Shown: piece by piece, positions 1 to 31,320 of the stretch
Layout: the number at the start of each line of letters is the position of its first letter
How positions within the stretch are numbered: the stretch's first letter is position 1
IMG/VR virus record: IMGVR_UViG_3300044615_001608
Span: 1-34,557 of that record
Length of the DNA stretch: 34,557 bases
Direction: 5' to 3' (one strand)
Source of the DNA: a virus
Taxonomy: Duplodnaviria > Caudoviricetes
Program-made: the position numbers and the translations under genes
Notes under the pieces: model-generated
The model's input: only the letters and a program-made list of their open reading frames with translations
The model's database searches: none
What the model was told of the DNA's origin: nothing

Positions 1-855
1 GATGCCCGCTCGGCCAAGGTACGTCCGAATGTCCCGATCCACGTTCCGCCCGTAGATCGACCAGCACAACCGCTCCTCCCCGTCCGGAACCGCGTCGATC
101 GACTCCCGGAGAATCGCCGCGAGCGCGGGTGTGATCGGAACGGTTCGGTACGCCTGCTTGGTGCCCTCGACGAACCCCTCGGGGTAGACCGAGAGGACCC
201 GCTCGACCAAGTCCACGTCCTGCACGCGGAGCCTCAGAGCCTCGCCGCGGCGTAGGCCGGCGAGCCTGCACATTCCGACCAGGGCTCGCCACGCCGCGTC
301 GGGGACGGCGTCCAGGAGCCGACGCAGGTCGTCGTGGCTGATGACCGCCCAGGTCTTCGCCATGTCGGGAGACGCGCCCGACACCCGGTCGAACGGGTTG
401 AGCCGGATGAGGTCTTGATCACGAGCCTCTCGGAAGATGGACTTCGCGTCCCGGATGTACCGGCTGACGGTCGCCGCGGAAAGCTCCTTCCCGAGCATCC
501 ATGTTCGGAACGCCGCGGCGCCCGCGCGGGTGATCCGATCGAGCCGGATGTCGCCAAAGTGATCGAGCAGCTTGGCGAAGGTCTGCATCTTGAGGTTGAC
601 CGTCCCTTCCTTGAGTTCGGAGTGCGACTTGAGGTACGCGGTCCTCCACGCGGAGAGAAGCGGCGCGTTCCCCGCGTCCTCGCTCCCAGGCTCAAGGATG
701 TGGTCGCGGGCGATCTCGCGGCACGCGCGGAGTGCTTCGGCCTTGCTGACCTTCGCCTTGCTGCCGATGGACTTGGCGACCCGCTTGCCGGTGGTGGTCC
801 TCCACTTCGCTTGCCAGTATTCGCCGTTCGAATGAAGCTGTACGCCGATGTTCAT
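1..855 (-). CDS. int: Tyrosine recombinase / phage integrase (3' end beyond window; absent from ORF track)
   Basis: My translation from ATG 855: MNIGVQLHSNGEYWQAKW... It contains SAM-like core-binding motifs (FGDIRLDRIT, LSAATVSRYIRDAKSIF, LIRLNPF), box I LAGLRRGEALRLRVQDVD and the catalytic Lys region GTKQAYRTVPI. The frame is open to base 1, and the start overlaps the upstream stop (ATGA). Confidence 0.92.
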   Translation of the reverse strand, partial: MNIGVQLHSNGEYWQAKWRTTTGKRVAKSIGSKAKVSKAEALRACREIARDHILEPGSEDAGNAPLLSAWRTAYLKSHSELKEGTVNLKMQTFAKLLDHFGDIRLDRITRAGAAAFRTWMLGKELSAATVSRYIRDAKSIFREARDQDLIRLNPFDRVSGASPDMAKTWAVISHDDLRRLLDAVPDAAWRALVGMCRLAGLRRGEALRLRVQDVDLVERVLSVYPEGFVEGTKQAYRTVPITPALAAILRESIDAVPDGEERLCWSIYGRNVDRDIRTYLGRAGI

Positions 856-1580
856 GGCTTCTCCATCATCGCGAGGACTTCGCGGGCGAGGATGTAGGTT
901 GGCGTTCCAACGGGCGTTACGCCAAGCACCCGCCCGCACAGCAGGCTTATCTTCTCCCTGAACGCGGCGTCGTCGGGTTTGGCGGGCTTGCACCTGTCGC
1001 AGCCGGGGCAAGGGTCCTCGATGTCGATTCCCAACATGCCCGAATGGGTTCGCGTCTTACCGCTCCCATCGCACGCCTGCGCGGGGGGCTTAACGGGTGA
1101 CGAGCCAGTAGAGCAGGAGGACGGTGATTCCGAAGATGCCGATGATGTTGACGGTTTCGAGGACTCTGTCGATCCAGAACCAGATTCGTCTGAGCATGGG
1201 GGTTCTCCGGGGATGCGGCTTTCGACCGCGTGAATACGTTGCTCCATAGCCATGAGCGTGCCGAACAGGGCGTCGGTCGCGCCTTGAAGTTGCTGCTTGT
1301 TGGGGTTGAAGCACTGTCGATCAAACTCGGACGCCATCCATCGCAGCTTCTCCATTCGGGCGTGATGGCTCGGCACCTCCGGCCTGTGCGTCTCGACGAC
1401 GCTGGCGGGGGTGGGTCCGAACGGGTGCGTGACGGCATCCGCAGACGGGTACTCGTGCCCGTTCACGCATCGGTCATTGCCATTGGGCCGTCGCTCGCGG
1501 CTGACCCCGACGGATCCGCACTTCGGGCAGAGTCCGTAGGTGGTCGGAATAGCAGGGGTGGGGTTCTTGTCACTTCCCAT
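852..1580 (-). CDS. Hypothetical phage protein with Cys-rich (zinc-ribbon-like) N- and C-terminal segments
   Basis: ATG 1580 with AAGGAG RBS; YGLCPKCG...GNDRCVNGHEYPS and C-terminal CPGCDRC; Ser-rich central linker. Confidence 0.7.
   Translation of the reverse strand: MGSDKNPTPAIPTTYGLCPKCGSVGVSRERRPNGNDRCVNGHEYPSADAVTHPFGPTPASVVETHRPEVPSHHARMEKLRWMASEFDRQCFNPNKQQLQGATDALFGTLMAMEQRIHAVESRIPGEPPCSDESGSGSTESSKPSTSSASSESPSSCSTGSSPVKPPAQACDGSGKTRTHSGMLGIDIEDPCPGCDRCKPAKPDDAAFREKISLLCGRVLGVTPVGTPTYILAREVLAMMEKP
1090..1197 (-). CDS. Nested 35-aa single-pass membrane peptide (alternative frame inside 852-1580)
   Basis: GGAGAA RBS upstream of ATG; MLRRIWFWIDRVLETVNIIGIFGITVLLLYWLVTR; mostly C-ending codons. 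Confidence 0.5.
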   Translation of the reverse strand: MLRRIWFWIDRVLETVNIIGIFGITVLLLYWLVTR

Positions 1581-1890
1581 CGCGGGCTCCTTTCTTCTTG
1601 CGAGGCTTCTTCGGTACAGGCAACGCCACAGCACGATCCCACGCGCCGTCGGTGACGTACTGCCGGAGTTCCGAGTACCCCGTCAACGAGTACCCGATCA
1701 GTTGCGCAAACTGTTGCTGTTCCTCACGGGTGTACTTCCCGTGGAGTTGGGCGTCGATGGCGATGGTGTTCATGTCCATGATCCCCGCCTTTGTAGCGAG
1801 GTCCAGCATGTCCCGCACGATCCGGTTCGCTTTGAATCGAAGCGTGCCGTGATCGTCCCACGCGAGCGGTTGCATTGGGAAAGGCTTCAT
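1570..1890 (-). CDS. Conserved phage hypothetical protein
   Basis: GGAGG RBS before ATG 1890; PMQPL...RFKANRIV...QFAQLIGYS..GYSEL pattern recalled from phage hypotheticals. Confidence 0.75.
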   Translation of the reverse strand: MKPFPMQPLAWDDHGTLRFKANRIVRDMLDLATKAGIMDMNTIAIDAQLHGKYTREEQQQFAQLIGYSLTGYSELRQYVTDGAWDRAVALPVPKKPRKKKGARDGK

Positions 1891-1942
1891 CCCTCCCCTC
1901 CCCTCACGCGTGCGGCTTGGGCGGCGGCGGGGGTGTATTCGC

Positions 1943-2122
1943 TCATCGTTCCTCCCCAATCGCCTGCTGCAACGCGACACGGACGGCGTCACCCACCGAC
2001 ACCCTGACGCCCTTCTCCTTGGCGAGCTTGGCGGCAAACTCTCGCGCCATCTCGACCACCTGATCGGCCTTGCGGACGCTGATTTGCGTGTGCGTCCTGG
2101 GCCTGGACTTGTCGTCTACCAT
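1943..2122 (-). CDS. Small ribbon-helix-helix-like DNA-binding protein (59 aa; absent from ORF track)
   Basis: CAAGGAGAA RBS; MVDDKSRPRTHTQISVRKADQVVEMAREFAAKLAKEKGVRVSVGDAVRVALQQAIGEER, a strand (TQISV)-helix-G-S-helix pattern. Confidence 0.65.
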   Translation of the reverse strand: MVDDKSRPRTHTQISVRKADQVVEMAREFAAKLAKEKGVRVSVGDAVRVALQQAIGEER

Positions 2123-2220
2123 CGAACTTCTCCTTGTGAGGCCGGCGTGCTAGCCGTCGGCTCTTGGGGCGGCAACCCCGAGAATCGCACCCGTCCGGTT
2201 CCCCGGGCGGGTGCGTTGTT
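2123..2220 (-). repeat. Early-gene leader repeat R6 (diverged copy)
   Basis: Minus strand: stop, AACAA, CGCACCCGCCCGG-GGAA-CCGGACGGGTGCG hairpin, second hairpin with TTGCCG loop, CAAGGAGA, ATG. Confidence 0.7.
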
Positions 2221-2385
2221 TCAGGGCTTGCCCTTCTCGGTCGTGAAGATGGACCCCGAGTTCATGCCGGAGTTGATGTTCAGGAACGACCAGTGACGGA
2301 CGCCCCATGCGATGAGGCCAACCGCGGCGAGATTCCCGCACCACTGCCACAGCGAGCAGGCGTAGAGGTAGTCGAAGAGCGTCAA
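2221..2385 (-). CDS. Small putative membrane protein (54 aa)
   Basis: GGAGG RBS and TTG start overlapping the upstream TGA; hydrophobic stretch NLAAVGLIAWGV. Confidence 0.55.
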   Translation of the reverse strand: MTLFDYLYACSLWQWCGNLAAVGLIAWGVRHWSFLNINSGMNSGSIFTTEKGKP

Positions 2386-2555
2386 GATACACCTCCCTTC
2401 GTGGTGCGGTGGCCGCACACTTGGCACTTCACCGCGCCGTGGGAGCACTGAGGCTCGGCGGGAATCGGGCGGGCGTTCTTGATGTCCTCCAAAATGCGGT
2501 CAAGCACCTTGGCCTCCTGCGGGCTGATCTCCTCTGTCTGATTCACGTTCATCAT
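2382..2555 (-). CDS. Small hypothetical protein with C-x-H...C-x2-C motif (57 aa; absent from ORF track)
   Basis: Follows leader R5 (CAAGGAGAT RBS); MMNVNQTEEISPQEAKVLDRILEDIKNARPIPAEPQCSHGAVKCQVCGHRTTKGGVS. Confidence 0.65.
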   Translation of the reverse strand: MMNVNQTEEISPQEAKVLDRILEDIKNARPIPAEPQCSHGAVKCQVCGHRTTKGGVS

Positions 2556-2621
2556 GCAAATCTCCTTGTCCGGGGCATCCGGAAACCTCGCGCGTCTCGT
2601 TTCCGGGACGCGCGGGTGTGT
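2556..2621 (-). repeat. Early-gene leader repeat R5
   Basis: TGA, ACACACC, CGCGCGTCCCG-GAAA-CGAGACGCGCG hairpin, TCCGG-ATGCC-CCGGA hairpin, CAAGGAGAT. Confidence 0.85.
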
Positions 2622-3551
2622 TCAAACGGGCTTGTCGAGCACCACGAGCCGGGTCCGCACGCCAGTCGGGACGAACGCGTCCGGACCATTGAACGCGTCG
2701 GCAAGCTCCTGGACGTACTTGCCGTGGTCCAACAGCAGCAGCCTGAACGCGTGCGCCTTCTGGTCGTTCCGATAGAACAACCCCTCTGACACAATTGCCA
2801 CCAACCGACCACCCGGGCGCAGGGATCTGAACGCGTGCGCGACGTGCTCGGCATCCTGCCCGTTCTCGAAAGGCGGGTTCATGAGCACGACGTCGATGCT
2901 CGCTTCCTCCACCCCGCACGCGAGAAAATCCTCGTTCTCGAAGGTGTGATCTTTGAGCCGGAGAACCTCGCAAAGCTGTGCGTTCCGCTCGATGCAAAGC
3001 ACGTTCGGAATCTCGGGGTGTCGCTCTCGCAGTCGATCCACGATCGACCCGATCCCTGCCGACGGTTCCAGCACGTTCCGGACGTCCGGCCCGATGTCCG
3101 CGCAGTCGATCATGAGGTCAACGAGCTTGGGCGGGGTGGGGAAGAATCCGGGGATGTTCCGTGCCCCGCCGCGGATCGTGCGGAGCAAGTCGGCAAGCTC
3201 GATTTCCCTGCTGTCCTCGGGCGGGCGCTCGGTCTTGAGCATCTCGCGGGCCTTCTCCGCCTGGTCCGGCTCAAGGTCGCCGTGCCATCCGCGCACGATC
3301 TCGCGGAGTTGTCGCCCCGATCGGATAGAACCGAGCGGGAAGGGCACGGGCGGGCGTTGCCAGAGGTCCGCGAGCTTCTCGGCGGCTCGGGAGGCATCAA
3401 GCAGGGCGAGCCCGTCTGAGGCCATCGACGCCGCGATAGAGGCGCGGCGCCTCGTGTGTCGCATTCGGCCGATCGGGCTGTTCATCTTCGCGTGAGCCTG
3501 CTTCCCCAGACTCTCCGCGATGCCGCGCCAGCGGGCGGATTGTGGGGTCAT
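2622..3551 (-). CDS. N6-adenine-type DNA methyltransferase with N-terminal extension
   Basis: FFPTP, motif I VLEPSAGIG, motif IV VLMNPPF, LRPGGRLVAI. Confidence 0.9.
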   Translation of the reverse strand: MTPQSARWRGIAESLGKQAHAKMNSPIGRMRHTRRRASIAASMASDGLALLDASRAAEKLADLWQRPPVPFPLGSIRSGRQLREIVRGWHGDLEPDQAEKAREMLKTERPPEDSREIELADLLRTIRGGARNIPGFFPTPPKLVDLMIDCADIGPDVRNVLEPSAGIGSIVDRLRERHPEIPNVLCIERNAQLCEVLRLKDHTFENEDFLACGVEEASIDVVLMNPPFENGQDAEHVAHAFRSLRPGGRLVAIVSEGLFYRNDQKAHAFRLLLLDHGKYVQELADAFNGPDAFVPTGVRTRLVVLDKPV

Positions 3552-3775
3552 TCGCCAGCCTCCTCAGCCTCAGCAACCTCGGCGTCAAAGTGGGATTTGG
3601 CGATGCGGGCGCACTCGTTGAAATCGTGGTTGTTTGCCTTGGCCCAATGCATGAGGTCGGCAAGGATGTCCGTGAGGGCACCTTCGTCGTCGTTTCGCCA
3701 CCGCGACCCGTGTTGATTGGCGTCGATCGCGTCTTCTGCTGATTGGATCCTGTCCGCGTTGGTTCGTTCGCTCAC
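3548..3775 (-). CDS. Hypothetical all-alpha protein (possibly MazG-like fold)
   Basis: LTDILADLMHW...DF...A..H...E pattern; overlapping start/stop with both neighbours; GGAGG RBS. Confidence 0.7.
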   Translation of the reverse strand: MSERTNADRIQSAEDAIDANQHGSRWRNDDEGALTDILADLMHWAKANNHDFNECARIAKSHFDAEVAEAEEAGE

Positions 3776-4062
3776 GATTCCACCTCCTCGGCGTTCTTGT
3801 CAAGCTCGGTTCCCGCGTAGCTGACCCACACCCAAGCGGCGACATATGTGCCGTTGTCGTCGCCTTCGGACAAGGCAGCGTCGTCGTCGATCTCAACCTC
3901 GCCGTCTTCCTGGTGGAGTTCCTTGGCCCACTTGCGGACCATTTCGGCGTGCGGCGGGTCCTTGAACCGTTCGAGAAGCTCGTCTGCCAATTGTTCCAGC
4001 CGATCAAACTCGGTGTTTCCTGCGGCGACAGTGTCCAAAAAATCTTTGATATCGGGGTGCAT
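3772..4062 (-). CDS. Acidic conserved phage hypothetical protein
   Basis: Start reassigned to ATG 4062 after CCAGGAGAA RBS; DGEVEIDDDA...GTYVAAWVWV. Confidence 0.75.
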   Translation of the reverse strand: MHPDIKDFLDTVAAGNTEFDRLEQLADELLERFKDPPHAEMVRKWAKELHQEDGEVEIDDDAALSEGDDNGTYVAAWVWVSYAGTELDKNAEEVES

Positions 4063-4132
4063 GGTGTTCTCCTGGTGGGCCGGGCATCGGCCAAGCTCGC
4101 CCGAGCCGTTTCCGGCGCGGGCGGGTGTGTTC
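4063..4132 (-). repeat. Early-gene leader repeat R4
   Basis: TAA, GAACACACC, CGCCCGCGCCG-GAAA-CGGCTCGGGCG hairpin, GGCCG-ATGCC-CGGCC hairpin, CACCAGGAGA. Confidence 0.85.
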
Positions 4133-4411
4133 TTACTCGTCGTTCTCGTCGGGCTCGTCGTTCTCGTCGCGCCACAGGGCCTCGATGCGGTCGGATTCCT
4201 CGAGCGCCTCCAAAGCCTCGTCATCGTCTTCGCCGAACCCGCTGTTCCCATACTCGCCGTCCGTCTCGGTGATAAGTCGAACGTCGCCGACAAGTGTCTC
4301 TCCTCGGCGAACCTTTGCCTTCGCCTCCTCGAACGTTTCCGCCTCGATGGTGTGCTCGAAGTAGGCAATACGGGTCACGGTCTGCGCTTCGCGAACGATG
4401 AACTTTGCCAT
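4133..4411 (-). CDS. Highly acidic hypothetical protein (92 aa)
   Basis: ATG 4411 after CAAGGAGAT RBS; IEAETFEEAKAKV motif; D/E-rich C-terminal half. Confidence 0.75.
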   Translation of the reverse strand: MAKFIVREAQTVTRIAYFEHTIEAETFEEAKAKVRRGETLVGDVRLITETDGEYGNSGFGEDDDEALEALEESDRIEALWRDENDEPDENDE

Positions 4412-4479
4412 GTGGATCTCCTTGCGCCCGGGCATCGGGCAAGCCTCGCCGCGCCGGTTTCCCGGGGCGGCGGGTGTGT
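4412..4479 (-). repeat. Early-gene leader repeat R3
   Basis: TGA, ACACACC, CGCCGCCCCGG-GAAA-CCGGCGCGGCG hairpin, GCCCG-ATGCC-CGGGC hairpin, CAAGGAGATCCAC, ATG. Confidence 0.9.
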
Positions 4480-5370
4480 TCAAACGGCGGTCGCTGCGCC
4501 GATCAGCGGGCGGAGCGAGTCGAGCGACGTGTAGAGCCCGACGATCGCGTCTAGTCCAAGCTCCTCGGCCATGTTGGGCCGGTCTCTATGCCTGACCGGT
4601 TGCGAGTACTGACCGGCGTCAAAAATGTCGGTCACGAGACAGACGATTCGGGCGAACAGCGGGGAGCTAACCGCGCCGATGCGTTCCAAGTCGACGGGGT
4701 CGGATGCGTGCTTGAGCGTGCACGCGTGTACGTAGTGCGTGCCTCTCCGGTCGCTGTTCTCTGTCTCGATGAGGGTGATTTCAACCGATCGCCCCTGCCG
4801 CTCGATGGTTTCCGCGATGGCTGCAAGCAAGCCCCCAACCCGCGCAAACTGCCCACCCTCCCATGCTCCGAGCGCGGTCGAATCAAGCCCGAGCCGGATA
4901 ACCTGGGACATTCGACCCGCAACCGAGCGGCGGAAGGGGCGTTCGTGCCCAACAAGCACCCGGTCAACGTTTGCTTCGTCGCCATCATCGCCCCACACGA
5001 GCCGGCGGCGGCGGCTTTCCGCCCAACCATTCGCCTCGATGGTTTCGACGAACGTCCCCCGATAGCTGTCTAGCTGGGCAAGGAACGTCGACGGCGCTCG
5101 CCCCTCTTCCATGGCGTTCCAAGCGTCTTCGAACGTTGGGAATTCTGGGTGACTGGTCCAAGGGCCATACCGATCCTGCGGCTTCGTCCCGCACTGCCCG
5201 AGCCACCATTCCGCGTGAAAACACCATTCCGCCAAGTCGTCGTAGTACCGGACAGCGAGCGGGATCGGGTTGGATGTCTCCGGGCGGTGGATCTGGGTCG
5301 CGTCGAAATGCCGCTCCCCTCTGATCTGGATTCTCCGTCTGCTGCCCCTGGTTGCGTTCGCTTTCATCAT
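4480..5370 (-). CDS. VWA-like (CobT-type) partner of the adjacent AAA+ ATPase
   Basis: Immediately downstream of the AAA gene; GDEANVDRVLVG, AIAETIERQGRSVEI, LKHASDPVD...SPLFAR motifs resemble phage AAA-partner proteins. Start reassigned after CCAAGGAGAT RBS. Confidence 0.65.
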   Translation of the reverse strand: MMKANATRGSRRRIQIRGERHFDATQIHRPETSNPIPLAVRYYDDLAEWCFHAEWWLGQCGTKPQDRYGPWTSHPEFPTFEDAWNAMEEGRAPSTFLAQLDSYRGTFVETIEANGWAESRRRRLVWGDDGDEANVDRVLVGHERPFRRSVAGRMSQVIRLGLDSTALGAWEGGQFARVGGLLAAIAETIERQGRSVEITLIETENSDRRGTHYVHACTLKHASDPVDLERIGAVSSPLFARIVCLVTDIFDAGQYSQPVRHRDRPNMAEELGLDAIVGLYTSLDSLRPLIGAATAV

Positions 5371-5427
5371 GGGTGGATCTCCTTGGTGAATCCGCGCCGC
5401 GCCGGTTTCCCGGGGCGGCGGGTGTGT
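5371..5427 (-). repeat. Early-gene leader repeat R2 (first hairpin only)
   Basis: 33 bp (5395-5427) identical to R3 (4447-4479), followed by CACCAAGGAGATCCAC; lacks the ATGCC hairpin. Confidence 0.9.
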
Positions 5428-6527
5428 CATTCTGCGAGCGCCTTAGCCTTCTCCTCGTCCGACCATCCGACCGTGAGACGGTCCAGAATCTCGGCGGTTG
5501 GCTTCCCTGCGGCGACCATGCGAGCGGCGGCTATGACCGAGCGGGTGCCCACAATCTGCCGGATCTTGTGACGTCCGATGTTCTCCCGGATCTTGCGAAT
5601 CCGCGCGAGGATCATCGAATCTGAGAGGATCGATTCCTCCAGCCTCGCGTCATATCCGACGTAGAACCGAGCGCCAGCGAATCGATCAAGCGTGGCAGCA
5701 TCGATGGGCGAGCGCCCGATATACTGAGCAGTCCCGCCCGTGCCCCATGTGTTGGCTGCGGCCACGATCACGGTATCGGCGTGGCGATTGATGATGCGGC
5801 GGGCGGGGTCATGGTGACGGGGAAGGAACAAGCGACCATTCGCAAGCGCGGCGTTCACCTGGACGAGAATCTCGGCGGGTGCCGAATCGATCTCGTCGAG
5901 CAGGTAGACCCCGCCCGCTTCGTAGGCCTGAACGAAAGCGGTCTCCTGATACTTTCCCTCGGCATTAATCCCGCCGACCAGCTGAGCGGCGGTCATGTCT
6001 GCGGCGAACGATTGCGCACCGAACGAGCGGCCGAGCGCCTTCGCGAGCGTTTCGGCTAGGGTCGTCTTGCCCGATCCGGCGGGACCGGAAAGCCAAAGGT
6101 TCTGGAACCCCATGGCAACGGCTTCTGCCAATTGTGCCAACTCGGGCCGGGCGTTTCGGATCTCGGGGCCCGTGGGCATGTCCCCGATCTGGAATCGGAT
6201 CGTCTGGGTCGGGCTGCTCTTGATCGATTCGACCAAGGTCCGCAAGCCGCAAACGTCCTTGGCAACGAGGTCGACGCATTCGCCAAGGGTTTCAACCTTG
6301 GCCGAAAGGGCTTCAACCTCGGCGGGCTTGACTGATCCAGCCAGACCCCGGATAGCTGCCGCAAGCGTCGCGGCATGGTCGTCGGTTTCGGCGGGCGTGT
6401 TCGTCCGCACGGGTGCGGCTTCTCGCACGGTGCGAGTGAACGGGATTGACCCTTGGGGCGTGTTGGATGGCGCATCCCCTAGGGGCATGCGTCGGGAAAG
6501 GCCTGGAGGTAGGGTGGCTGCTGACAC
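5427..6527 (-). CDS. AAA+ ATPase, MoxR/CbbQ/CobS-like
   Basis: Walker A GPAGSGKTT, Walker B YLLDEID, sensor AAANTWG, YIGR.PIDAATLDRF. GTG start at 6527 after CCAAGGAGAT RBS. Confidence 0.9.
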   Translation of the reverse strand: MSAATLPPGLSRRMPLGDAPSNTPQGSIPFTRTVREAAPVRTNTPAETDDHAATLAAAIRGLAGSVKPAEVEALSAKVETLGECVDLVAKDVCGLRTLVESIKSSPTQTIRFQIGDMPTGPEIRNARPELAQLAEAVAMGFQNLWLSGPAGSGKTTLAETLAKALGRSFGAQSFAADMTAAQLVGGINAEGKYQETAFVQAYEAGGVYLLDEIDSAPAEILVQVNAALANGRLFLPRHHDPARRIINRHADTVIVAAANTWGTGGTAQYIGRSPIDAATLDRFAGARFYVGYDARLEESILSDSMILARIRKIRENIGRHKIRQIVGTRSVIAAARMVAAGKPTAEILDRLTVGWSDEEKAKALAE

Positions 6528-6607
6528 GATTGAATCTCCTTGGTGCATGGCTTGGGGCATCCAAGCCGAATCGACCGAGCCCGGTTTCCCGGGGCCGGTC
6601 GGGTGGT
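6528..6607 (-). repeat. Early-gene leader repeat R1
   Basis: TGA, ACCACC, CGACCGGCCCCGG-GAAA-CCGGGCTCGGTCG hairpin, GGCTTGG-ATGCC-CCAAGCC hairpin, CACCAAGGAGAT. Confidence 0.9.
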
Positions 6608-6904
6608 TCATGAGATCACGAGTTCAGAGACGGGGACCGATCCGTGAATGGTGCGGGCATCGCACCCTTTCACGGGCCGACGGCGACCTCGGTTGTGCCC
6701 CCCGGTGTGGTACCAACCATCGGGGCGACCATCATGGGCACGGGAGAAGCGGAACCCGGATTCCTTCAAGCTGTCGCGAGTCTGCGCGTCCGGCTTGGAA
6801 GTGAAGAAAACCCAGACCCACCGACCGACCAATTCGGCCGGGAGGTTCTTGGCCTGGCACCACTGCACCACTGCGGCCGCGCTGCTGTCCTTGTGAATCG
6901 TCAT
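6608..6904 (-). CDS. First early gene, hypothetical protein
   Basis: CACCAAGGAGA RBS; ELVGRWVWV...LKESGFRFS...WY pattern recalled from phage/plasmid early proteins. Confidence 0.75.
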   Translation of the reverse strand: MTIHKDSSAAAVVQWCQAKNLPAELVGRWVWVFFTSKPDAQTRDSLKESGFRFSRAHDGRPDGWYHTGGHNRGRRRPVKGCDARTIHGSVPVSELVIS

Positions 6905-6954
6905 GCGTGTCTCCTTGGTGTGCTCCAGCATGCGGCATGCATGCCAGATAGCAC

Positions 6955-6983
6955 AAGATATCCGATCTATTTCGGCGTGTCAA
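6955..6983 (-). promoter_or_regulatory. Sigma70-type early promoter
   Basis: TTGACA (6983-6978), 17 bp spacer, TATCTT (6960-6955), AT-rich upstream tract; sits in front of the first early gene. Confidence 0.85.
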
Positions 6984-7250
6984 CCAGATATCTTGAATTT
7001 CGCAAGATTTTTCTGAGATGCATTCGGGTTGGAGACCTCCCCCTCTTTGTCTCCCCCTCCTTCCTTCTCGCGTACGGGTGCTCACCCTGGGCACCACAAG
7101 CACCACAAGCCCCAGAGCGGAACAGACGGGAGAGAGAGACAAGGACAAGCGGTCCCGGTCCCGGTCTTCTGCTTCTGCTGCGGCTGGATTGCAACGGATC
7201 GCAACGGATAGCGGGTGCAGGTGAAAAAGGCAGAGCGGAGAGGGAGACTT

Positions 7251-7270
7251 GAGACTGAGAATCATTCTCA
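7251..7270. promoter_or_regulatory. Fur-box-like site
   Basis: GAGACTGAGAATCATTCTC matches GATAATGATAATCATTATC at 15/19; contains the perfect 7-1-7 palindrome TGAGAAT-C-ATTCTCA. Confidence 0.55.
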
Positions 7271-7316
7271 ATAAGCCCGCATCCTGCCCGATTCTGCATG
7301 CGAGCGGGTCGGGCAC

Positions 7317-7331
7317 TGACACAATGTGTCA
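7317..7331. promoter_or_regulatory. Perfect palindrome TGACACA-A-TGTGTCA (15-bp form of the dispersed motif)
   Basis: Seen directly; related 15-mers at 21447-21461 and 31268-31282. Confidence 0.7.
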
Positions 7332-7418
7332 CCCAAACAGCCTCACAAGCTGCCTCTAAGTGTCGGGATTCCCTGCACTTACGTGAGGATTGTGCCAGCA
7401 TTTGTGCCACGATTCGAC

Positions 7419-7457
7419 GATCGGTCGGGATCGGTGCCGATCGGGGGCCGGGATCGG
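7419..7457 (+). repeat. GATCGG x4 with 10/10/13-bp spacing
   Basis: Copies start at 7419, 7429, 7439 and 7452 in the non-coding block. Confidence 0.6.
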
Positions 7458-7649
7458 TCGGCCTCTCGTGTGTGTCTGGGCGTGCAGGCCGGCGGGGGCC
7501 TTGGGGGGTGCGAGCGCGTGCGGTTTCTCTCACTCCCTCACCCAAATCTCGAACCAGTTTTTTCCGGGCCGTTCTGCCACTGCTCCGTGAGTGTGCTTCT
7601 GGCGGACTGCCATCGCACTTTTTTGGCGGAGTTGGCGGTTTTCGAGGTG

Positions 7650-8321
7650 TTATCCGGACGTTGGGAGACTTCCCCACTGCTCGGCCATTGCTTGTGCGAC
7701 GCCGGGGTATGTGTTGCTTCGAAGTTCTTGGCGGAGCGGGCTTGGCCCGAGCTTGTTCTGTCCGCTGTTAGTCTGGTTGCCCCATCGCGGCTTGGGCTTG
7801 TTTTCTCCGTTGCAATTGGGGCAGCCGTACTTGTCCGTGTTGGGAACTACGAGCCCGCAGCAAACAAGCCGCGGCAAGACGGGGTTGGTCGCCACGAGCT
7901 TTGGCAGGTTCTCAAGCCACAGGCATGTGGCTTTGCTGGCGTCGTCTCCGAACTGCCATGGCTGGATGATTTGGTCGGGCCGGCGGTATCGCGTGCTGAG
8001 GCAGCCGATCGGGTTCTCCATGGCTTTGCGGCGAAACGGGAGGTCCATCATGGCGATGGCAAATGTGGCAGCGGCGTCGGTCTTGGCTTGGCGTTCGGGC
8101 CTTCGCTTGTTCCAGTGCAGGCCGGAGCACGCGAGGTAGGTGCAATCGGGATGCATGATGCCGAGATCGAAGCCGGTCCAGTCCACGGCCATGTAATCGC
8201 CTTGGATGTGCGGGCCGGGGCGGCGGGATGGTTTGAGGTCACAGGACACGGCGTCGTGCCCGCGGGCGATGAACGCGTCACGGATGATCCCGGAGCATTC
8301 GCCAAGGATGGCAACTTTCAT
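7650..8321 (-). CDS. Phage-type DNA cytosine-C5 methyltransferase
   Basis: GECSGIIRDAF..RGHDAVSCD, motif IV-like HPDCTYL, motif VI ENPIG, IIQPWQFG, KATCLWL, RSNTYPGVAQAMAEQW. Confidence 0.85.
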   Translation of the reverse strand: MKVAILGECSGIIRDAFIARGHDAVSCDLKPSRRPGPHIQGDYMAVDWTGFDLGIMHPDCTYLACSGLHWNKRRPERQAKTDAAATFAIAMMDLPFRRKAMENPIGCLSTRYRRPDQIIQPWQFGDDASKATCLWLENLPKLVATNPVLPRLVCCGLVVPNTDKYGCPNCNGENKPKPRWGNQTNSGQNKLGPSPLRQELRSNTYPGVAQAMAEQWGSLPTSG

Positions 8322-8584
8322 GGCTTGAACGAATCTCCGGACGTTGGGAGCAGCCCGCCGAAGTTTGCCTTGTTGAATCGACGGACTGCTTCGAGGAAGG
8401 TGATGGAACCTTCCTGGAGCTGCTGGGCGATTCTTTCGGTGTCGGGGTGGAAGTTGCGTGGTATTTCTGCGTGGTCGAGTGCTTCGGCGAGGGCTTTGAG
8501 GTCGTCTCGGAAGTTTGGCGTGTCGGCCGCGGGCTTTGTGGCTTGTCCCGCCGTCGCGGCGAGCTTGATGATGTCGTCGTTCAT
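8318..8584 (-). CDS. Hypothetical protein (88 aa)
   Basis: ATG 8584 overlaps the terL stop (ATGA); its stop overlaps the MTase start. Confidence 0.65.
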   Translation of the reverse strand: MNDDIIKLAATAGQATKPAADTPNFRDDLKALAEALDHAEIPRNFHPDTERIAQQLQEGSITFLEAVRRFNKANFGGLLPTSGDSFKP

Positions 8585-10320
8585 GTGCGAAAGAAGTCTC
8601 CGTGCTCGATGGTGGTCGCGTCCTGCTGGCGGAAGAAGATCCCGATGGCTTCGTCGATCTCGGCCTGGATGCGGGAGTCTCGTTCGTCCGCGGCCGCGGC
8701 GGTCGGGTCGATGCGGAGCATCTCGTTCAGGTCCGCGATGGCGGCGGCGACCACTTCGATCTCGTCGTCGTGGTCGAGCGAGTCGCGGTCGCGGGTGATG
8801 CGGGTAAGCTGGTGCTGCAGGTCCTCGTTGCGTGCGGCGGACGGGTCGATGACGACGCGGTGGGCGAGGAGGGCCGGCTCGAGGGCTCCGATGATGCGGA
8901 GTTCCTTCTGACCGCTTGAGGGCTTGTCGTCGACAACGCATCCCCAGCCTTGCGGGTACGCGGCGTTCTCGCCGGGTCGGAGGGCGAGTCGGTTGAAGTC
9001 GGTTTGGAAGAGGTAGCCGTAGGCGTCGCCGCCGAAGTTGCCTTCGACCGTGGCGGTGTTGACGCCGAGCGAGCGGGCGATCTGGGCGACACGGGCGCGG
9101 GTGGTGTCGGTGGCGCCGCCGGCGTAGGCGGAGACGTGCTTGATGAAGAAGACGCCGTGGAGGTGGCCGACGATGCCGATAGAGAGCTTGTCTTTGCCGC
9201 GGCCCGCGGGGTCGATCCGCATGTGGGTGTGCGTGTACGGGAGGAGCTTGTCGGAGACGTGGATCGGCCGGTAGAACCGATCGGTGTCCCAGCCGAGCGA
9301 GGGGATGTCGGTGGCAGAAGTGTCACCCTTGGAGTTCTGTTGGCCCCAGACGATCTCGGTCGGCGCGAGGTGCGGGTGGCACGGGTGGAGGATGAAGTCG
9401 GCCAGGCGGAGCGGGTAGCGGTCCTCGTCGGCGATCTGGGCGATGAGCTTGTACTGCTGGGCGTAGTAGACCTTGCCTTCGGCCTTGCGGTCGTTGATGT
9501 AGGACCGGCCGAACCGGTGCGGCATGGTCGGGTCGCCGACCTGGACTTCGCCGCGGGCGAGCTTGTCGGCGAGCATCGGGGCGTAGCCGAGCGTGAGTTT
9601 CTGCTCTTCGGGATCCAGGTGCTCGAGCGACCATGTCCGGAACGTGTACCCGCGCTTTGAGAGCTTGATGTAAACCGATTCCTCGTGGTGGAAGGTGCCG
9701 ACGTCGACGATTCGACCGCCCGATCCCCGGCCCCTGGTGTCGAACGACGCGACGGCCTTCAGCTCCTTGATTCGCTCATCGAGCAGTGTGCGGGCCTCGA
9801 GCGTGCGGGTGTTCGTCTTGGTTTCGATGTCGTCGGCGTAGACGACGTGGGCACGGCCGCCAGTGATTTGCGATTCGATGCCCTGGGCGTGGAGCGAATA
9901 GTCGCGAGCGTTCTCACTGCACGGCCCGGTGTGGAACCACCGCTCCGAGTCCTTCTGCCATGTGTTCTTCTGGGGAACGAGGTGCCGGAGAAACGGCACC
10001 GTGCTGAGCCACCGCCGAACAAGCTGGACGGTCTTCTTGGCTTCGCCGTCCGTCTTCGAGAGGATCTTGACCTTCCACTGCGGATCAAGGAAAAGGTCAC
10101 ACGCGGTGCTCGCCGCGGTCACGACGTGCGTTTTGCCGGTGCTTCGCGGAGCGAGCACGCCGCAATACTGAGGCCCGGTGCGGACCCAATCAAAGATGTC
10201 AAGCTCGACGTCGCCGAGTGGGGCTTTGTTCAGCGGATCGGTGAACTTCCACAGCTCGCGAAGGAAGAAGATGTGGTCCTTCTCCAGCCGCGCGAGGTAT
10301 CGGTACGTGACGTCGCTCAT
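8581..10320 (-). CDS. terL: Terminase large subunit (T7 gp19-like)
   Basis: Walker A APRSTGKT, QITGGRAHVVYADDIE Walker B, nuclease IDPAGRGKD, VEGNFGG, QKELRIIGALEP, LDHDDEIE. Confidence 0.95.
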   Translation of the reverse strand: MSDVTYRYLARLEKDHIFFLRELWKFTDPLNKAPLGDVELDIFDWVRTGPQYCGVLAPRSTGKTHVVTAASTACDLFLDPQWKVKILSKTDGEAKKTVQLVRRWLSTVPFLRHLVPQKNTWQKDSERWFHTGPCSENARDYSLHAQGIESQITGGRAHVVYADDIETKTNTRTLEARTLLDERIKELKAVASFDTRGRGSGGRIVDVGTFHHEESVYIKLSKRGYTFRTWSLEHLDPEEQKLTLGYAPMLADKLARGEVQVGDPTMPHRFGRSYINDRKAEGKVYYAQQYKLIAQIADEDRYPLRLADFILHPCHPHLAPTEIVWGQQNSKGDTSATDIPSLGWDTDRFYRPIHVSDKLLPYTHTHMRIDPAGRGKDKLSIGIVGHLHGVFFIKHVSAYAGGATDTTRARVAQIARSLGVNTATVEGNFGGDAYGYLFQTDFNRLALRPGENAAYPQGWGCVVDDKPSSGQKELRIIGALEPALLAHRVVIDPSAARNEDLQHQLTRITRDRDSLDHDDEIEVVAAAIADLNEMLRIDPTAAAADERDSRIQAEIDEAIGIFFRQQDATTIEHGDFFRT

Positions 10321-10967
10321 GCGGAAAGCTGCTCGCCGAACTGCCTGAGAATCTCGGTGGCTTGAAGCAAGATTTGGCTACAACGCTGGCGGCTGCACCC
10401 CATGACTACGCCGATCTGCCCGAGCGTGAGGCCCTTCATGCGGAGCCGAATCGCCTCGGCCTGCTGCTTGGTGAGGATGTGGGACGCCTCGTCGATGATG
10501 TCGATCGCGTCCAGGCTGTCGCCAACGTCCGGTCCTTGCGGCGCCTCGAAAGGCATCACGCTGTCGTTCCGGCCATGGCGCTCGATCGACCTCGGGAACG
10601 AAGCGTTGCAAGTGAGCTGCTTGGTTTTCTCGGACGACCGGTACAGCGTTCGGTACGGCGTGCGGCGACACACTCCACCTTCTTCCCAGATCGAGCCGCG
10701 AATCAGAGAGGGCATGTGTGCACCGATGTACGTCGAGAACGCAACCCCGCGGGCCGGGTCGAATCGTTCAACGAATCGCAGGCACAGAAGGAACGCCCGC
10801 CCAAGGTGCTCGTACGGATCCGAGTTCGGCACGGCACGCGAAATGTGCAGGATGAGCATGCCTTGCCACCGCATGATCAGCTCGTTCCGCGCGGCAACGT
10901 TGCCAGCCTGAGCCTCGCGGATCAGCGGCAAATCACGCTCAAATGTCGATGCGAAAGCTGCTGTCAC
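10317..10967 (-). CDS. Sigma-70-family RNA polymerase sigma factor (regions 2 and 4)
   Basis: AQAGNVAARNELI, FDPARGVAFSTY, region 4 HTH LTKQQAEAIRLRMKGLTLGQIGVVMGCSRQRCSQI. Confidence 0.88.
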   Translation of the reverse strand: MTAAFASTFERDLPLIREAQAGNVAARNELIMRWQGMLILHISRAVPNSDPYEHLGRAFLLCLRFVERFDPARGVAFSTYIGAHMPSLIRGSIWEEGGVCRRTPYRTLYRSSEKTKQLTCNASFPRSIERHGRNDSVMPFEAPQGPDVGDSLDAIDIIDEASHILTKQQAEAIRLRMKGLTLGQIGVVMGCSRQRCSQILLQATEILRQFGEQLSA

Positions 10968-11645: not shown

Positions 11646-11659
11646 GCGACTGACTCAAA

Positions 11660-11733
11660 TAGCGGGAGGCAGACTTGAACTGCCGACCTGTGGATTATGA
11701 GTCCACCGCTCTTGCCAACTGAGCTATCCCGCA
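11660..11733 (-). tRNA. tRNA with CAU anticodon (probably elongator Met; Ile2 not excluded), CCA not encoded
   Basis: Minus strand TGCGGGA TA GCTC-AGTTGGCAA-GAGC G GTGGA-CTCATAA-TCCAC AGGTC GGCAG-TTCAAGT-CTGCC TCCCGCT A forms a full cloverleaf. Confidence 0.93.
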
Positions 11734-11798
11734 AACGTTCGTGCCCACTTGCATGAGCACGAACGCACCTGGAGAGGAGATCCAGCGAAGACGATAGC

Positions 11799-21276: not shown

Positions 21277-23712
21277 TCATGGGACCGCGATGATCGTTGA
21301 GAAGTACCCGCCGGGTCCGGCCGGGACAACCGCGCCCGAAGGATTCGTGACCGTGACGTCGCCCGTGGCGCCCGTGGAGCAGCTTGCGACAAGCTCCAGG
21401 AAGATGCTCGAGACGCCGTCGATCGTGATTTCGACGTCTGCCGCGGTGCCACATTGTGCCACGTCCTCAATGTAATTTTCGTCCAGCGGAGATGCGTCTG
21501 CGATGGCCGGACCAACCCCAAACACGTCGATCGCCCACCCTCGGTGTGCGTCGTACACGAGAAGATAACAGTTGCTCCCAATCATTGCAATGTCGGAGAT
21601 CGCCGCGTCCTCGAATCCGATGCGGGTCCAAGCGGACTGGATCCTCGCGTCCCGCTCTTCGTCGCGGGTTGACTGGTAGAGCTTCAACTCGCTCCCGGAG
21701 AAGTTCCCCTCATCCGGAAGGGCGATGATCACGCCGTCGTTGGGGCTGGTGACGATGCGGCGCAAGCTGTCTGGGATCAGCCGGGGGACGTGCGGAGTGA
21801 TCGACACGGCAAGGTTGGAAGCCTGAGCGTCGTAGTACCGGTACTCGTAAATCTCGGTGACGTCGTCTTTCTTTCCGGGGAAGATGATCGAATCGCCGGC
21901 CGCGGCGGGCCGCACGCGGCTCAGCGTGTAGTAGTTCGTGCTCGCGGTGACGGCCGCGGTCGTCGGCGTGAACAGGTCCGGAGAATTGATCTCGAACTGC
22001 TGGCCCGCTTTGGTGAAGACCACCACGGTCTTTCGGAACGGGACCAAGAAATCAACCTCGGTCACGCGGTCGCCGGACATGCTCAGGTGAATCGGGTCGG
22101 ATTCCGCCGTCTCCGCCGCGTTGTCCATGAACAGGTTGAACAGGTCCTCGGCCTGCGAAGTGTCAACATCCTCGCCGGCCCCGAACATCAATCGCCCGCG
22201 GGCTCGCGTCAGATCGGCGATCGGCCGCTCCTCGGCGATGAAGTCCGGAATCGGGTTGCTCAGCTCATCTCCGCTCGGCCGCGAAGTCCAGTCGCAAGTG
22301 CTCACGTCGAAGACAGCCGGCGTGCGGCGGTCGCCCACGGACGTTCGAACCATCTGCACCGGCATCTTGGTCGGGTCGGGACGTGCTTCGGGCTGGTTCG
22401 GCGCGGTCTGCCTCGTCCACCGGTCCTCGATGTCGAGCGTGTCCTCTGTCGGCGACCCGGCCCCCGCGGTGATCACGTACTGCCCCGCGGTCGCGGAGAA
22501 GGGCGCGGTCGACGCGGTGTAGTTGTAGTCGCCGGCCACCGAAAGGTTCCGGGCGGGGAAGCACGTCGCGGCGGATCCGCGGTACGGGCTGATGATCGTG
22601 AAGTACCCGCCGGCGCCCGCGGGCGTCCACTTCACGATGGCGTTTCGGACCTCGCCGCCGGAAGATCGCAGACCGGCCTGGATGTTGAGCGCGACGTCGA
22701 GCATGTCTTCCGCGCCAAGGCCGGGACGCTCAATCGTGACAACGCCGAGCACGCCGATCGCGTCGGTAGAGGTGTTGCTGTTGTTGCTGACGGACAGGCC
22801 GGTCGTCGCTTCAACGAGCACGATCTCGTCGCCGTTTGTCTTGCTCGCGATGGAGTACCACATCGGAGTGTGGCCGGTCCCGCCCGTGATGAAGATTTGG
22901 TCGCCGTCGCGGTGCGTGTACGCCGAGAACGCCCCGGCTTTGGTCAGTGTTCGGTTGGTGGCATCCCACGCCCCGCCCGTGATGTCCATGTTGAGGCGCT
23001 GAAAGCCGATGCCAATTGTGCCACGGAGCGGGAGGCCGGCACCGTACGTCTCGTCGTCCCAATACCCGTTGCTGCCCGCCCACCACTCGCTGTTCGAACC
23101 GGCCCCGTTCTGGAAGAATCGGATCTCGGCAAAGGTGCCGTCGCCGCCTTCCGACAGGTCGTAGAGGAAGTACCCCGCGGCTTCTCCGGTGACGTCTTCC
23201 CTGGTGCGGTGGTACGTACCGCTTGCCGGCGAGTCCGCGAGCATGACGAAGTAGTCGCGGTAGGTGTTGTCCACCAAGTATGTTGGTGACGCGAGCGAGC
23301 CGGTCGGCTTCTTGTTGTTGAGAATGAAGGTCGTGTCGCCGATCGTCACGAACTGGAGGTTGTCGGCGTCGGCATCAAGGGCGTCAAGATACGCCTGGGC
23401 ATCGCCCGAGACGTTGACCGTGGCCTCGAGCCCGTCGATCTGGAAGACCCTGAGAACCCCGTCGCCGTAGACCACGAGGTACTGCTCGTCTTGGTCGCGC
23501 TCGATCGGGTGAAGCCGAAGGTTCGCGTTGGCCGGGGCGCCGGGCACGGACGCCACGAACCACGAGCCGTATCGCTCAACACACCCTTCCCTCGCGGAGA
23601 ACAGGACGTTCCAAGCGTCCTCAACCTGCCCTGACCGCCGCACTTCTGCCGGCTGCTGCGAGATGCCTTGGAAGACCAAAGGCACGCGGTCAGACTGATT
23701 CAGGGTCAGCAC
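21277..23712 (-). CDS. Tail tubular protein B / nozzle (T7 gp12-like), N-terminal and central part
   Basis: GISQQP..R..GQVEDAWN, TIGDTTFILN, MPVQMVR, WTSRPSGDELSNPIPDF, SDPI, ITPHVPRLIP, IQSAWTR. Confidence 0.92.
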   Translation of the reverse strand: MLTLNQSDRVPLVFQGISQQPAEVRRSGQVEDAWNVLFSAREGCVERYGSWFVASVPGAPANANLRLHPIERDQDEQYLVVYGDGVLRVFQIDGLEATVNVSGDAQAYLDALDADADNLQFVTIGDTTFILNNKKPTGSLASPTYLVDNTYRDYFVMLADSPASGTYHRTREDVTGEAAGYFLYDLSEGGDGTFAEIRFFQNGAGSNSEWWAGSNGYWDDETYGAGLPLRGTIGIGFQRLNMDITGGAWDATNRTLTKAGAFSAYTHRDGDQIFITGGTGHTPMWYSIASKTNGDEIVLVEATTGLSVSNNSNTSTDAIGVLGVVTIERPGLGAEDMLDVALNIQAGLRSSGGEVRNAIVKWTPAGAGGYFTIISPYRGSAATCFPARNLSVAGDYNYTASTAPFSATAGQYVITAGAGSPTEDTLDIEDRWTRQTAPNQPEARPDPTKMPVQMVRTSVGDRRTPAVFDVSTCDWTSRPSGDELSNPIPDFIAEERPIADLTRARGRLMFGAGEDVDTSQAEDLFNLFMDNAAETAESDPIHLSMSGDRVTEVDFLVPFRKTVVVFTKAGQQFEINSPDLFTPTTAAVTASTNYYTLSRVRPAAAGDSIIFPGKKDDVTEIYEYRYYDAQASNLAVSITPHVPRLIPDSLRRIVTSPNDGVIIALPDEGNFSGSELKLYQSTRDEERDARIQSAWTRIGFEDAAISDIAMIGSNCYLLVYDAHRGWAIDVFGVGPAIADASPLDENYIEDVAQCGTAADVEITIDGVSSIFLELVASCSTGATGDVTVTNPSGAVVPAGPGGYFSTIIAVP

Positions 23713-31248: not shown

Positions 31249-31320
31249 CTGATTCTCACTTTCTGGGTGTCACAATGTGTCACCCTCTGACTGCTCTTGA
31301 AACTGCTGGACGACGCTGGT

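Follow-up and report, generated by a model that had tools for sequence, protein, structure and literature searches.

Hairpin cassettes with a fixed AUGCC loop between the early genes of an uncultured lake phage match the geometry of a pre-5S rRNA junction

The early operon and its cassettes

The early genes of the phage represented by IMG/VR record IMGVR_UViG_3300044615_001608 are punctuated by a repeated two-hairpin cassette, which is the subject of this report. The stretch of DNA analysed here (the window, 34,557 nucleotides) is part of a phage contig, G001 (also L001), which is complete at 45,709 bp and bears direct terminal repeats. Its genes encode T7-like head, tail and terminase proteins and an integrase, and the part of the contig beyond the window encodes a T7-type RNA polymerase, ERF, a DUF3799 nuclease, a helicase and a ParB-like gene. 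G001 is a temperate, uncultured T7-polymerase phage from a lake; the best-matching public runs are of lake-water DNA.

The minus-strand early operon runs in the order ORF98, AAA ATPase, DUF7192, small genes, methyltransferase, more small genes and integrase. Just one sigma-70-like promoter site (10 of 12 matches) was found in positions 1-8500, and it lies upstream of this operon. We refer to the upstream hairpin as H1 and to the second hairpin, which has the loop AUGCC, as H2; a cassette is H1-(N)UU-H2 followed by a ribosome-binding site, about 55 nucleotides (nt) in all. In the order of transcription, the features are as follows.

6955..6983, minus strand: sigma-70-type promoter, TTGACA-17-TATCTT, with a predicted +1 near 6949
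6924..6948, minus strand: S0, an H2 hairpin of 10 bp including two G-U pairs, loop AUGCC at 6934-6938, where the primary transcript is predicted to start
6608..6904, minus strand: ORF98, the first early gene, encoding a 98-aa alpha/beta protein of an unannotated family
6642..6675, minus strand: in-gene H2 in ORF98, with 6 bp extended by a further 7 bp and its AUGCC loop at 6656-6660
6549..6601, minus strand: S5 cassette; H1 at 6572-6601 (13 positions, C-C mismatch, GAAA loop), linker AUUC, H2 at 6549-6567 (AUGCC)
5427..6524, minus strand: AAA ATPase gene, MoxR/CobS-like
5392..5422, minus strand: S4, H1 alone, then AUU, without H2, before the DUF7192 gene
4480..5370, minus strand: DUF7192 gene
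4426..4474, minus strand: S3 cassette; H1 of 13 positions, CUU, H2 at 4426-4440 (AUGCC)
4078..4124, minus strand: S2 cassette; H1 of 12 positions, CUU, H2 at 4078-4092 (AUGCC)
2569..2617, minus strand: S1 cassette; H1 of 14 positions, UU, H2 at 2569-2583 (AUGCC)
2141..2215, minus strand: S6 cassette; H1 at 2186-2215 (GGAA loop), AUU, variant H2 at 2161-2182 (UUGCCG), third hairpin at 2141-2161

S6 precedes the last small genes and the integrase, and the H1 core of S4 is identical to that of S3. We take the DUF7192 product to be a likely vWA-type partner of the AAA ATPase, as in known MoxR/vWA pairs.

Most of this layout had been proposed in an earlier note on the same DNA, and its description proved accurate. 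The five ATGCC loops that it placed at 2574, 4083, 4431, 6556 and 6934 were found there on the minus strand with their stems, as were the six H1 hairpins, the A/C-rich tracts and the (A)AGGAGA sites. The TTGCCG variant lies at 2170-2175 as claimed, and the absence of a second hairpin from 5371-5427 corresponds to S4. The copy that it assigned to the 5' end of the early transcript (6925-6947) is S0, which stands behind the promoter listed above. The note had overlooked a sixth ATGCC hairpin, the one with its loop at 6656-6660 inside ORF98.

The hairpins are concentrated in the early operon and covary

Six ATGCC pentaloops closed by at least 5 Watson-Crick pairs occur in the window, all on the sense strand between 2574 and 6938, whereas 200 dinucleotide shuffles had 0.1 on average and never more than 1. 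A descriptor of H1 gave exactly six matches in the window, all within the early operon, and none in a 14-kb stretch covering the 11 kb of the phage contig that lie outside the window. The H2 stems, described earlier as covarying, do so: all five pairs change on both sides, pairing is kept in 30 of 30 cells, and none of 500 shuffles matched the covariation score. For H1, 7 of 10 pairs change on both sides and 96.7% are paired. The copies in the window are paralogues that were picked as hairpins, and therefore the shuffle controls are lenient and the significance is overstated. The cassettes fold with z-scores of -3.1 to -3.6, and the S0 hairpin alone with -1.1. In five places, H2 ends 1-11 nt upstream of the Shine-Dalgarno sequence.

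Two other explanations of these hairpins were rejected. ATGCC as the half-site of a palindrome in the DNA was discarded, as S0 is the only copy to form one and the repeated palindrome of this phage differs in sequence. Nor are the elements antisense terminators, since the related phages G004 and G005 would then carry an A-rich tail.

A cassette family in related phages

Cassettes were also found in other phages that encode a homologue of the AAA ATPase. In G002, a distant phage (43% identity for ORF98, 42% for the ATPase), two cassettes with the loop AAUGCC follow the ORF98 homologue and the gene after the ATPase. G003, G004 and G005 (ATPase 53-57%) have H1-UUU-H2 with the loops AUUCC, AAUUCC and UUUCC, and a third hairpin with the loop CCGACA between H2 and the Shine-Dalgarno sequence. 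A T7-type polymerase is encoded by G002 and G003; G004 and G005 are fragments. Among 12 early genes tested, only the AAA ATPase had a homologue in every cassette-bearing phage.

H1 has a nearly constant geometry across these phages. Its helix has 13 positions in 9 of 13 cassettes and 12, 14, 15 and 9 in the remaining four, and UU starts 14-16 nt past the H1 loop in all 13. A GNNA loop was found in 12 of the 13, and a single pyrimidine-led mismatch likewise in 12. This ruler holds across about four lineages with different stem sequences.

The spread of the cassette was assessed with several searches. A cassette descriptor run over 3.06 Mb returned 28 rows, of which 11 had an upstream hairpin of -19 kcal/mol or lower, a cut-off picked after the list had been viewed; all 11 were in phage loci of the ATPase family. 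The same cut-off gave no match in 108 control loci, at most 0.025 matches per shuffled genome, and two matches when 49 more distant ATPase loci were scanned. The match in L357 occupies the same slot, behind the second gene; that in L358 is of unverified position. A covariance model (R1) was built from the H1 pairs only, as the automatic alignment had misplaced H2. It recovered S6 (E 9e-5) and S4 (E 1e-3), on which it had not been trained, and gave no match in 46 other phage records, that of L357 included. An exact-pattern scan of viral contigs returned 110 stretches and no new true copy, and a blastn search with one cassette against 50,697 phage records had no match. In the cultured phage phiM5, the AAA locus shows hairpins after stop codons and no H2-type loop. 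No cassette was found within 1.5 kb of the sister AAA gene in 11 Phycisphaerae genomes. The core family is thus a small clade of about four lineages with the loop consensus (A/U)1-2-U-(G/U)-C-C.

Other structured spacers were seen at related loci. Hairpins with the loop CCGACA and covarying stems occur in L310 (7808, 8583, 11946, 12251) and L312 (7444, 8597) at predicted transcript starts and before Shine-Dalgarno sequences, and this loop equals the half-site of that phage's DNA palindrome. In L316 (11633-11700), a distant ATPase-bearing phage, a post-stop hairpin is followed by an AUUCC-loop hairpin without a UU linker, as judged by eye. Two Phycisphaerae genomes, L451 and L454, have a common, conserved structured leader (about 1300-1380) upstream of the sister AAA gene, with no Rfam match at gathering score.

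Similarity to the pre-5S rRNA junction of Phycisphaerae

The closest matches of ORF98 in genomes are mostly from Planctomycetota. On contig L225, from a Phycisphaerales metagenome-assembled genome, ORF98, DUF7192, the methyltransferase and the integrase all have homologues, as does the ATPase (66% over 244 aa), and the same assembled genome also encodes a T7-type polymerase. From these homologues, we infer that the host of G001 is a phycisphaeran planctomycete.

The phage-trained H1 model gave eight matches among 151 Phycisphaerae genomes, two of them in the spacer between 23S and 5S rRNA. In both spacers, a helix of 13 positions with a C-U or C-A mismatch carries a GACA or GAAA loop and is followed by UUU and then the 5S start. 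We then applied a fixed geometric test (a GNNA hairpin of at least 11 positions with its loop end 15-19 nt upstream of the 5S start; an earlier, looser picker had been noisy) to other 5S loci. Of 47 such loci in 61 genomes, the 30 with the best scores were used, and the two model-matched spacers are not among them. The test was passed by 10 of the 30 loci, seven of which had exactly 13 positions and nine UU, as compared to 85 of 74,281 control positions (0.11%). UU was present just upstream of the 5S start in 25 of the 30 loci. When H2 took the place of 5S, 9 of 11 phage cassettes passed the same test. A terminator cannot occupy the 23S-5S spacer position. In Phycisphaerae, RNase E/G and RNase Y were each found in 30 of 31 genomes and RNase III in 31 of 31; RNase M5 and RNase J were found above the cut-off in none of 21.

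L225 itself has two structured spacers, neither of which matches Rfam at E<=0.5. One is a 370-nt spacer (2512-2878) in which three units are closed by ACCCGCG/CGCGGGUUU stems, with paired hairpins in between; the other lies at 5396-5543.

A proposed role in processing of the early transcript

The 9S precursor of 5S rRNA is cut in E. coli by RNase E, which needs 5' secondary structure, prefers an upstream stem-loop, cuts between two stem-loops and binds duplexes irrespective of their sequence (PMC6202311, PMC8522691). According to a review, RNase E prefers U two bases past the cut and RNase Y cuts after G (PMC10503654). In the Ruminiclostridium cip-cel operon, GC-rich stems are cut-signals, with cuts 3' of the stem (PMC10311766), and the Bacillus cggR-gapA product is stabilised by a downstream hairpin (PMC11780869).

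We consider it about an even chance that a host single-strand endonuclease cuts the UU linker of the cassette and leaves hairpins on both new ends; the structures, their covariation and spread, and the geometric pre-5S match are observed, and this cut, the enzyme and any role of the loop are inferred. The cutter would most likely be RNase E/G, or otherwise RNase Y, acting on a long early transcript. H1 would serve as the positioning signal and stay on the upstream message as a 3' shield, and the downstream message would begin with H2, as the predicted primary transcript does. The AUGCC loop is probably a protein contact that tunes the stability or translation of the cut pieces, because it is invariant within the phage and a proline was sacrificed for it in ORF98. 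As S4 lacks H2, stability would be lower for the DUF7192 message than for that of the ATPase, and this would suit an unequal ratio of the two partners. The earlier note had suggested a structure-recognised processing or stabilising RNA element, and this idea gains support from the homologues in related phages and from the same geometry before host-class 5S rRNA. In favor of the proposed cut, we also count that H2 opens the predicted primary transcript and that another element, L008, has a hammerhead ribozyme core in the slot after the ORF98-family stop codon.

A number of observations weigh against cleavage at the linker. Twenty of the 30 5S loci failed the strict geometric test, and 3 of the 10 that passed are near-identical. 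Six of the eight host model matches are intergenic and lie outside rRNA operons, mostly right after stop codons (by eye), and some have longer U runs; thus, H1 may also work as a weak terminator. The linker is merely 3-6 nt long and lies between strong helices, and the constant helix length is possibly in part inherited. Folding energy is strand-neutral, the antisense strand folding equally well or better in 4 of 7 elements. The model leaves the fixity of the loop unexplained and does not account for the in-gene copy, which has no UU linker. Finally, the host class rests on homologues.

Alternative explanations

At a lambda-type nut site, the cognate N-like phage protein travels with the site and binds its loop. 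An unlikely alternative, but one to be taken seriously, is that H1 and its short U run form a weak terminator or pause, and that the AUGCC hairpins are nut/boxB-like sites which load a read-through phage protein on RNA polymerase. These hairpins stand where loading sites would be, at the transcript start and about 50 nt upstream of the first H1, and ORF98 contains an Arg-rich stretch. Several loci of the ORF98 family in other groups have a hairpin with a full U tract in the slot behind the stop codon, and some host H1-like matches have U-rich tails. In contrast, the tails of the cassettes have only 2-3 U, and a terminator scan flagged no cassette on the sense strand (for the H1 of S6, it flagged only the antisense strand). 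The cassette geometry is also the one seen in front of 5S rRNA. Moreover, ORF98 was not found in three cassette phages, which are incomplete, and none of 180 other ORF98-family loci has a cassette.

Alternatively, the AUGCC hairpin could be a translational operator by the ribosome-binding site, through which one protein would switch the early genes jointly, H1 being a mere 3' stabiliser. The short distance from H2 to the Shine-Dalgarno sequence, the invariance of the loop within the phage and the loss of a nearly invariant proline (present in 97 of 106 homologues) to the in-gene copy speak for this reading. However, it leaves the H1 ruler and the UU linker unexplained, and no loop binder has been identified. 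The loop differs between phages, one copy lies within coding sequence away from ribosome-binding sites, and three relatives have a separate CCGACA-loop hairpin between H2 and the Shine-Dalgarno sequence. We regard a joint operator as improbable.

A more specific proposal combines cleavage with loop recognition: the phages would copy the host's pre-5S cut signal and add a phage-specific loop read by a phage protein, here ORF98, giving an N/boxB-like switch that acts on RNA processing and stability instead of transcription. Both the leader and the coding sequence of ORF98 carry the AUGCC loop. We give this switch a small chance.

It is very unlikely that the cassettes are mainly gene-shuffling joints or hairpins at the DNA level, with incidental RNA features. 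The identical H1 core of S3 and S4 flanks one gene, H1 variants occupy exchanged positions in G004 and G005, two near-identical phages, and folding is strand-neutral, all of which would fit such joints. Compensatory stem changes, on the other hand, destroy homology, the GNRA loops are on the sense strand, and the geometry, in cassettes without a promoter, matches a known RNA-processing junction.

Least probable of all is that H1 is a minimal RNase III site in the style of the T7 early region. In favor of such a site, the phage has a T7-type polymerase, RNase III is present in 31 of 31 host-class genomes, 12 of 13 cassettes have 12-15 helix positions (mismatch counted) where at least 11 bp are needed between cut and loop, and the H1 size of eleven pairs plus two equals that of the minimal substrate (PMC1540722). 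Against it, the H1 stem is mismatched and has no lower stem. With the putative placement of the proximal box, moreover, position 2 is a G-C or C-G pair in 13 of 13 cassettes and position 4 in 11 of 12. At these positions, G-C pairs inhibit the E. coli enzyme and lower the reactivity of the Aquifex enzyme 10-fold; the determinants of these two enzymes may not be those of Phycisphaerae. The link to T7 and RNase III drawn in the earlier note therefore holds for the T7-type RNA polymerase of the contig and is opposed by the G-C pairs of H1.

ORF98 and the in-gene hairpin

The loop of the in-gene hairpin encodes D-A-R, where homologues have D-P-R. Proline occupies this position in 97 of 106 ORF98 homologues, and alanine was found only in ORF98 and its closest relative. 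The lost proline suggests that the loop is under selection, for instance so that ORF98 can regulate itself. ORF98 belongs to a family of 870 representatives, and its structure is predicted with confidence (pLDDT 89). The predicted structure has no clear fold match: a Foldseek search gave none at E<=0.001, and the best Z was 4.3. A tblastn search with ORF98 against 50,697 phage records had no match.

In G001 and G002, ORF98 is the obvious candidate for the loop-binding protein. These are two of the five clade phages with cassettes; ORF98 also occurs in one relative without a cassette, and it was not found in G003-G005, which are 82%, 26% and 30% complete. A role as universal loop binder was rejected on this distribution.

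Several other structures adjoin genes of the ORF98 family. The hammerhead core of L008 (8222-8276) is canonical, lies directly after the stop codon and was not found by Rfam at gathering score; L209 may have a U3-A8 hammerhead variant at about 7247-7300 (by eye only), and a hammerhead descriptor gave no match in the window. In L185, L194, L198 and L296, terminator-like hairpins with the loop GUGACAG and differing stems lie 3' of the stop codons. In L154 and L239, hairpins with GAUAAGG loops overlie the Shine-Dalgarno sequence on either side of the ORF98 homologue (6945, 7351), and we take them to be CsrA-like. Just upstream of the ORF98 homologue in L256, 6904-6977 is a sub-threshold match to c4-2 (31.7 bits, E 0.011).

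Relation to known RNA elements

Rfam 15 found only a tRNA in the whole window at gathering score. In the region 2000-7100 at E<=10, it gave one P15 match on the opposite strand, with 20 bits against a cut-off of 70. This agrees with the earlier note, which did not recognise the hairpin element as a named motif. No description was found in the literature covered, which excludes a supplement of 224 motifs (PMC5737381) that possibly holds non-Rfam motifs. The c4/c4-2 antisense RNA, a three-way junction with a long basal stem, was rejected, as the folds lack this closing stem and no C4/c4-2 match was found at E<=10; the GUCCY-hairpin (PMC2864571) is a different motif. The cassettes form a real motif family that had not been described, likely a variant of the signals by which messages are processed and stabilised between genes. 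What sets the family apart is its fixed loop and its match to the pre-5S junction of the host class.

The early region of T7 is transcribed as one host-promoter transcript with RNase III hairpins between the genes. G001 is similar in being a T7-like phage with a single host-promoter early transcript and intergenic hairpins, but H1 is short and GC-rich with inhibitory pairs, and H2 has no counterpart in the anatomy of T7 sites (for an R1.1-derived substrate, see PMC1540722). Where T7 punctuates its early message by RNase III sites, the cassette clade seems to reach the same end by a signal like that of host rRNA maturation.

The RNase E substrate in 9S RNA (PMC6202311, PMC8522691) likewise has an upstream stem-loop, a short U-containing single strand and then a helix. 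In contrast to it, the cassette is repeated between phage protein genes, its downstream helix is a fixed-loop hairpin, and its cut is a proposed one. The cip-cel (PMC10311766) and cggR-gapA (PMC11780869) operons are cases of selective RNA processing and stabilisation in which, as proposed for the cassettes, GC-rich intergenic stems act as cut-signals and hairpins guard both ends of the pieces and set gene ratios; they are host operons without a repeated family or fixed loop. PeSL cassettes of T4-type phages (PMC2839356) are also repeated intergenic stem-loops with a Shine-Dalgarno sequence, and they double as exchange points; each PeSL has a sigma-70 promoter and terminates transcription, whereas the present cassettes are promoterless and have a covarying fixed-loop hairpin. 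ANTAR targets (PMC3369931) similarly consist of two tandem hairpins with a conserved loop sequence, but these must be two hexaloops with A1 and G4, and here a GNRA tetraloop is combined with an AUGCC pentaloop. The AAUGCC loop of L002 is the only one that fits the hexaloop rule, and it does so singly.

If the proposed cut is real, a 13-step GNNA hairpin followed by UU would be a compact, testable targeting rule for RNase E/G or RNase Y and a first handle on RNA processing in Phycisphaerae. The fixed loop would then point to an RNA-binding protein as its partner.

Other features of the phage and its relatives

Among 13 public runs matching the phage there was no RNA run, and four DNA runs gave no variant letters. 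In the window, a sigma-factor-like gene (10320-10967) adjoins the terminase gene, and a tRNA-Met(CAT) lies at 11659-11734; the phage also has its T7-type polymerase.

Each phage of the cassette clade has its own genome-wide palindrome of 14-15 bp. In G003 (L362 and L363), a TGTCGGA-W-TCCGACA-type palindrome occurs 11 times, about 2-5 kb apart and also within genes, and in G002, TGTCAACGTTGACA occurs five times. G001 has a TGNCACA-W-TGTGNCA-type palindrome three times in the window (7317-7331, 21447-21461 and 31268-31282) and twice more elsewhere (shuffle mean 0.4, maximum 3). These palindromes may be parS/KorB-like sites, and G001 encodes a ParB-like protein.

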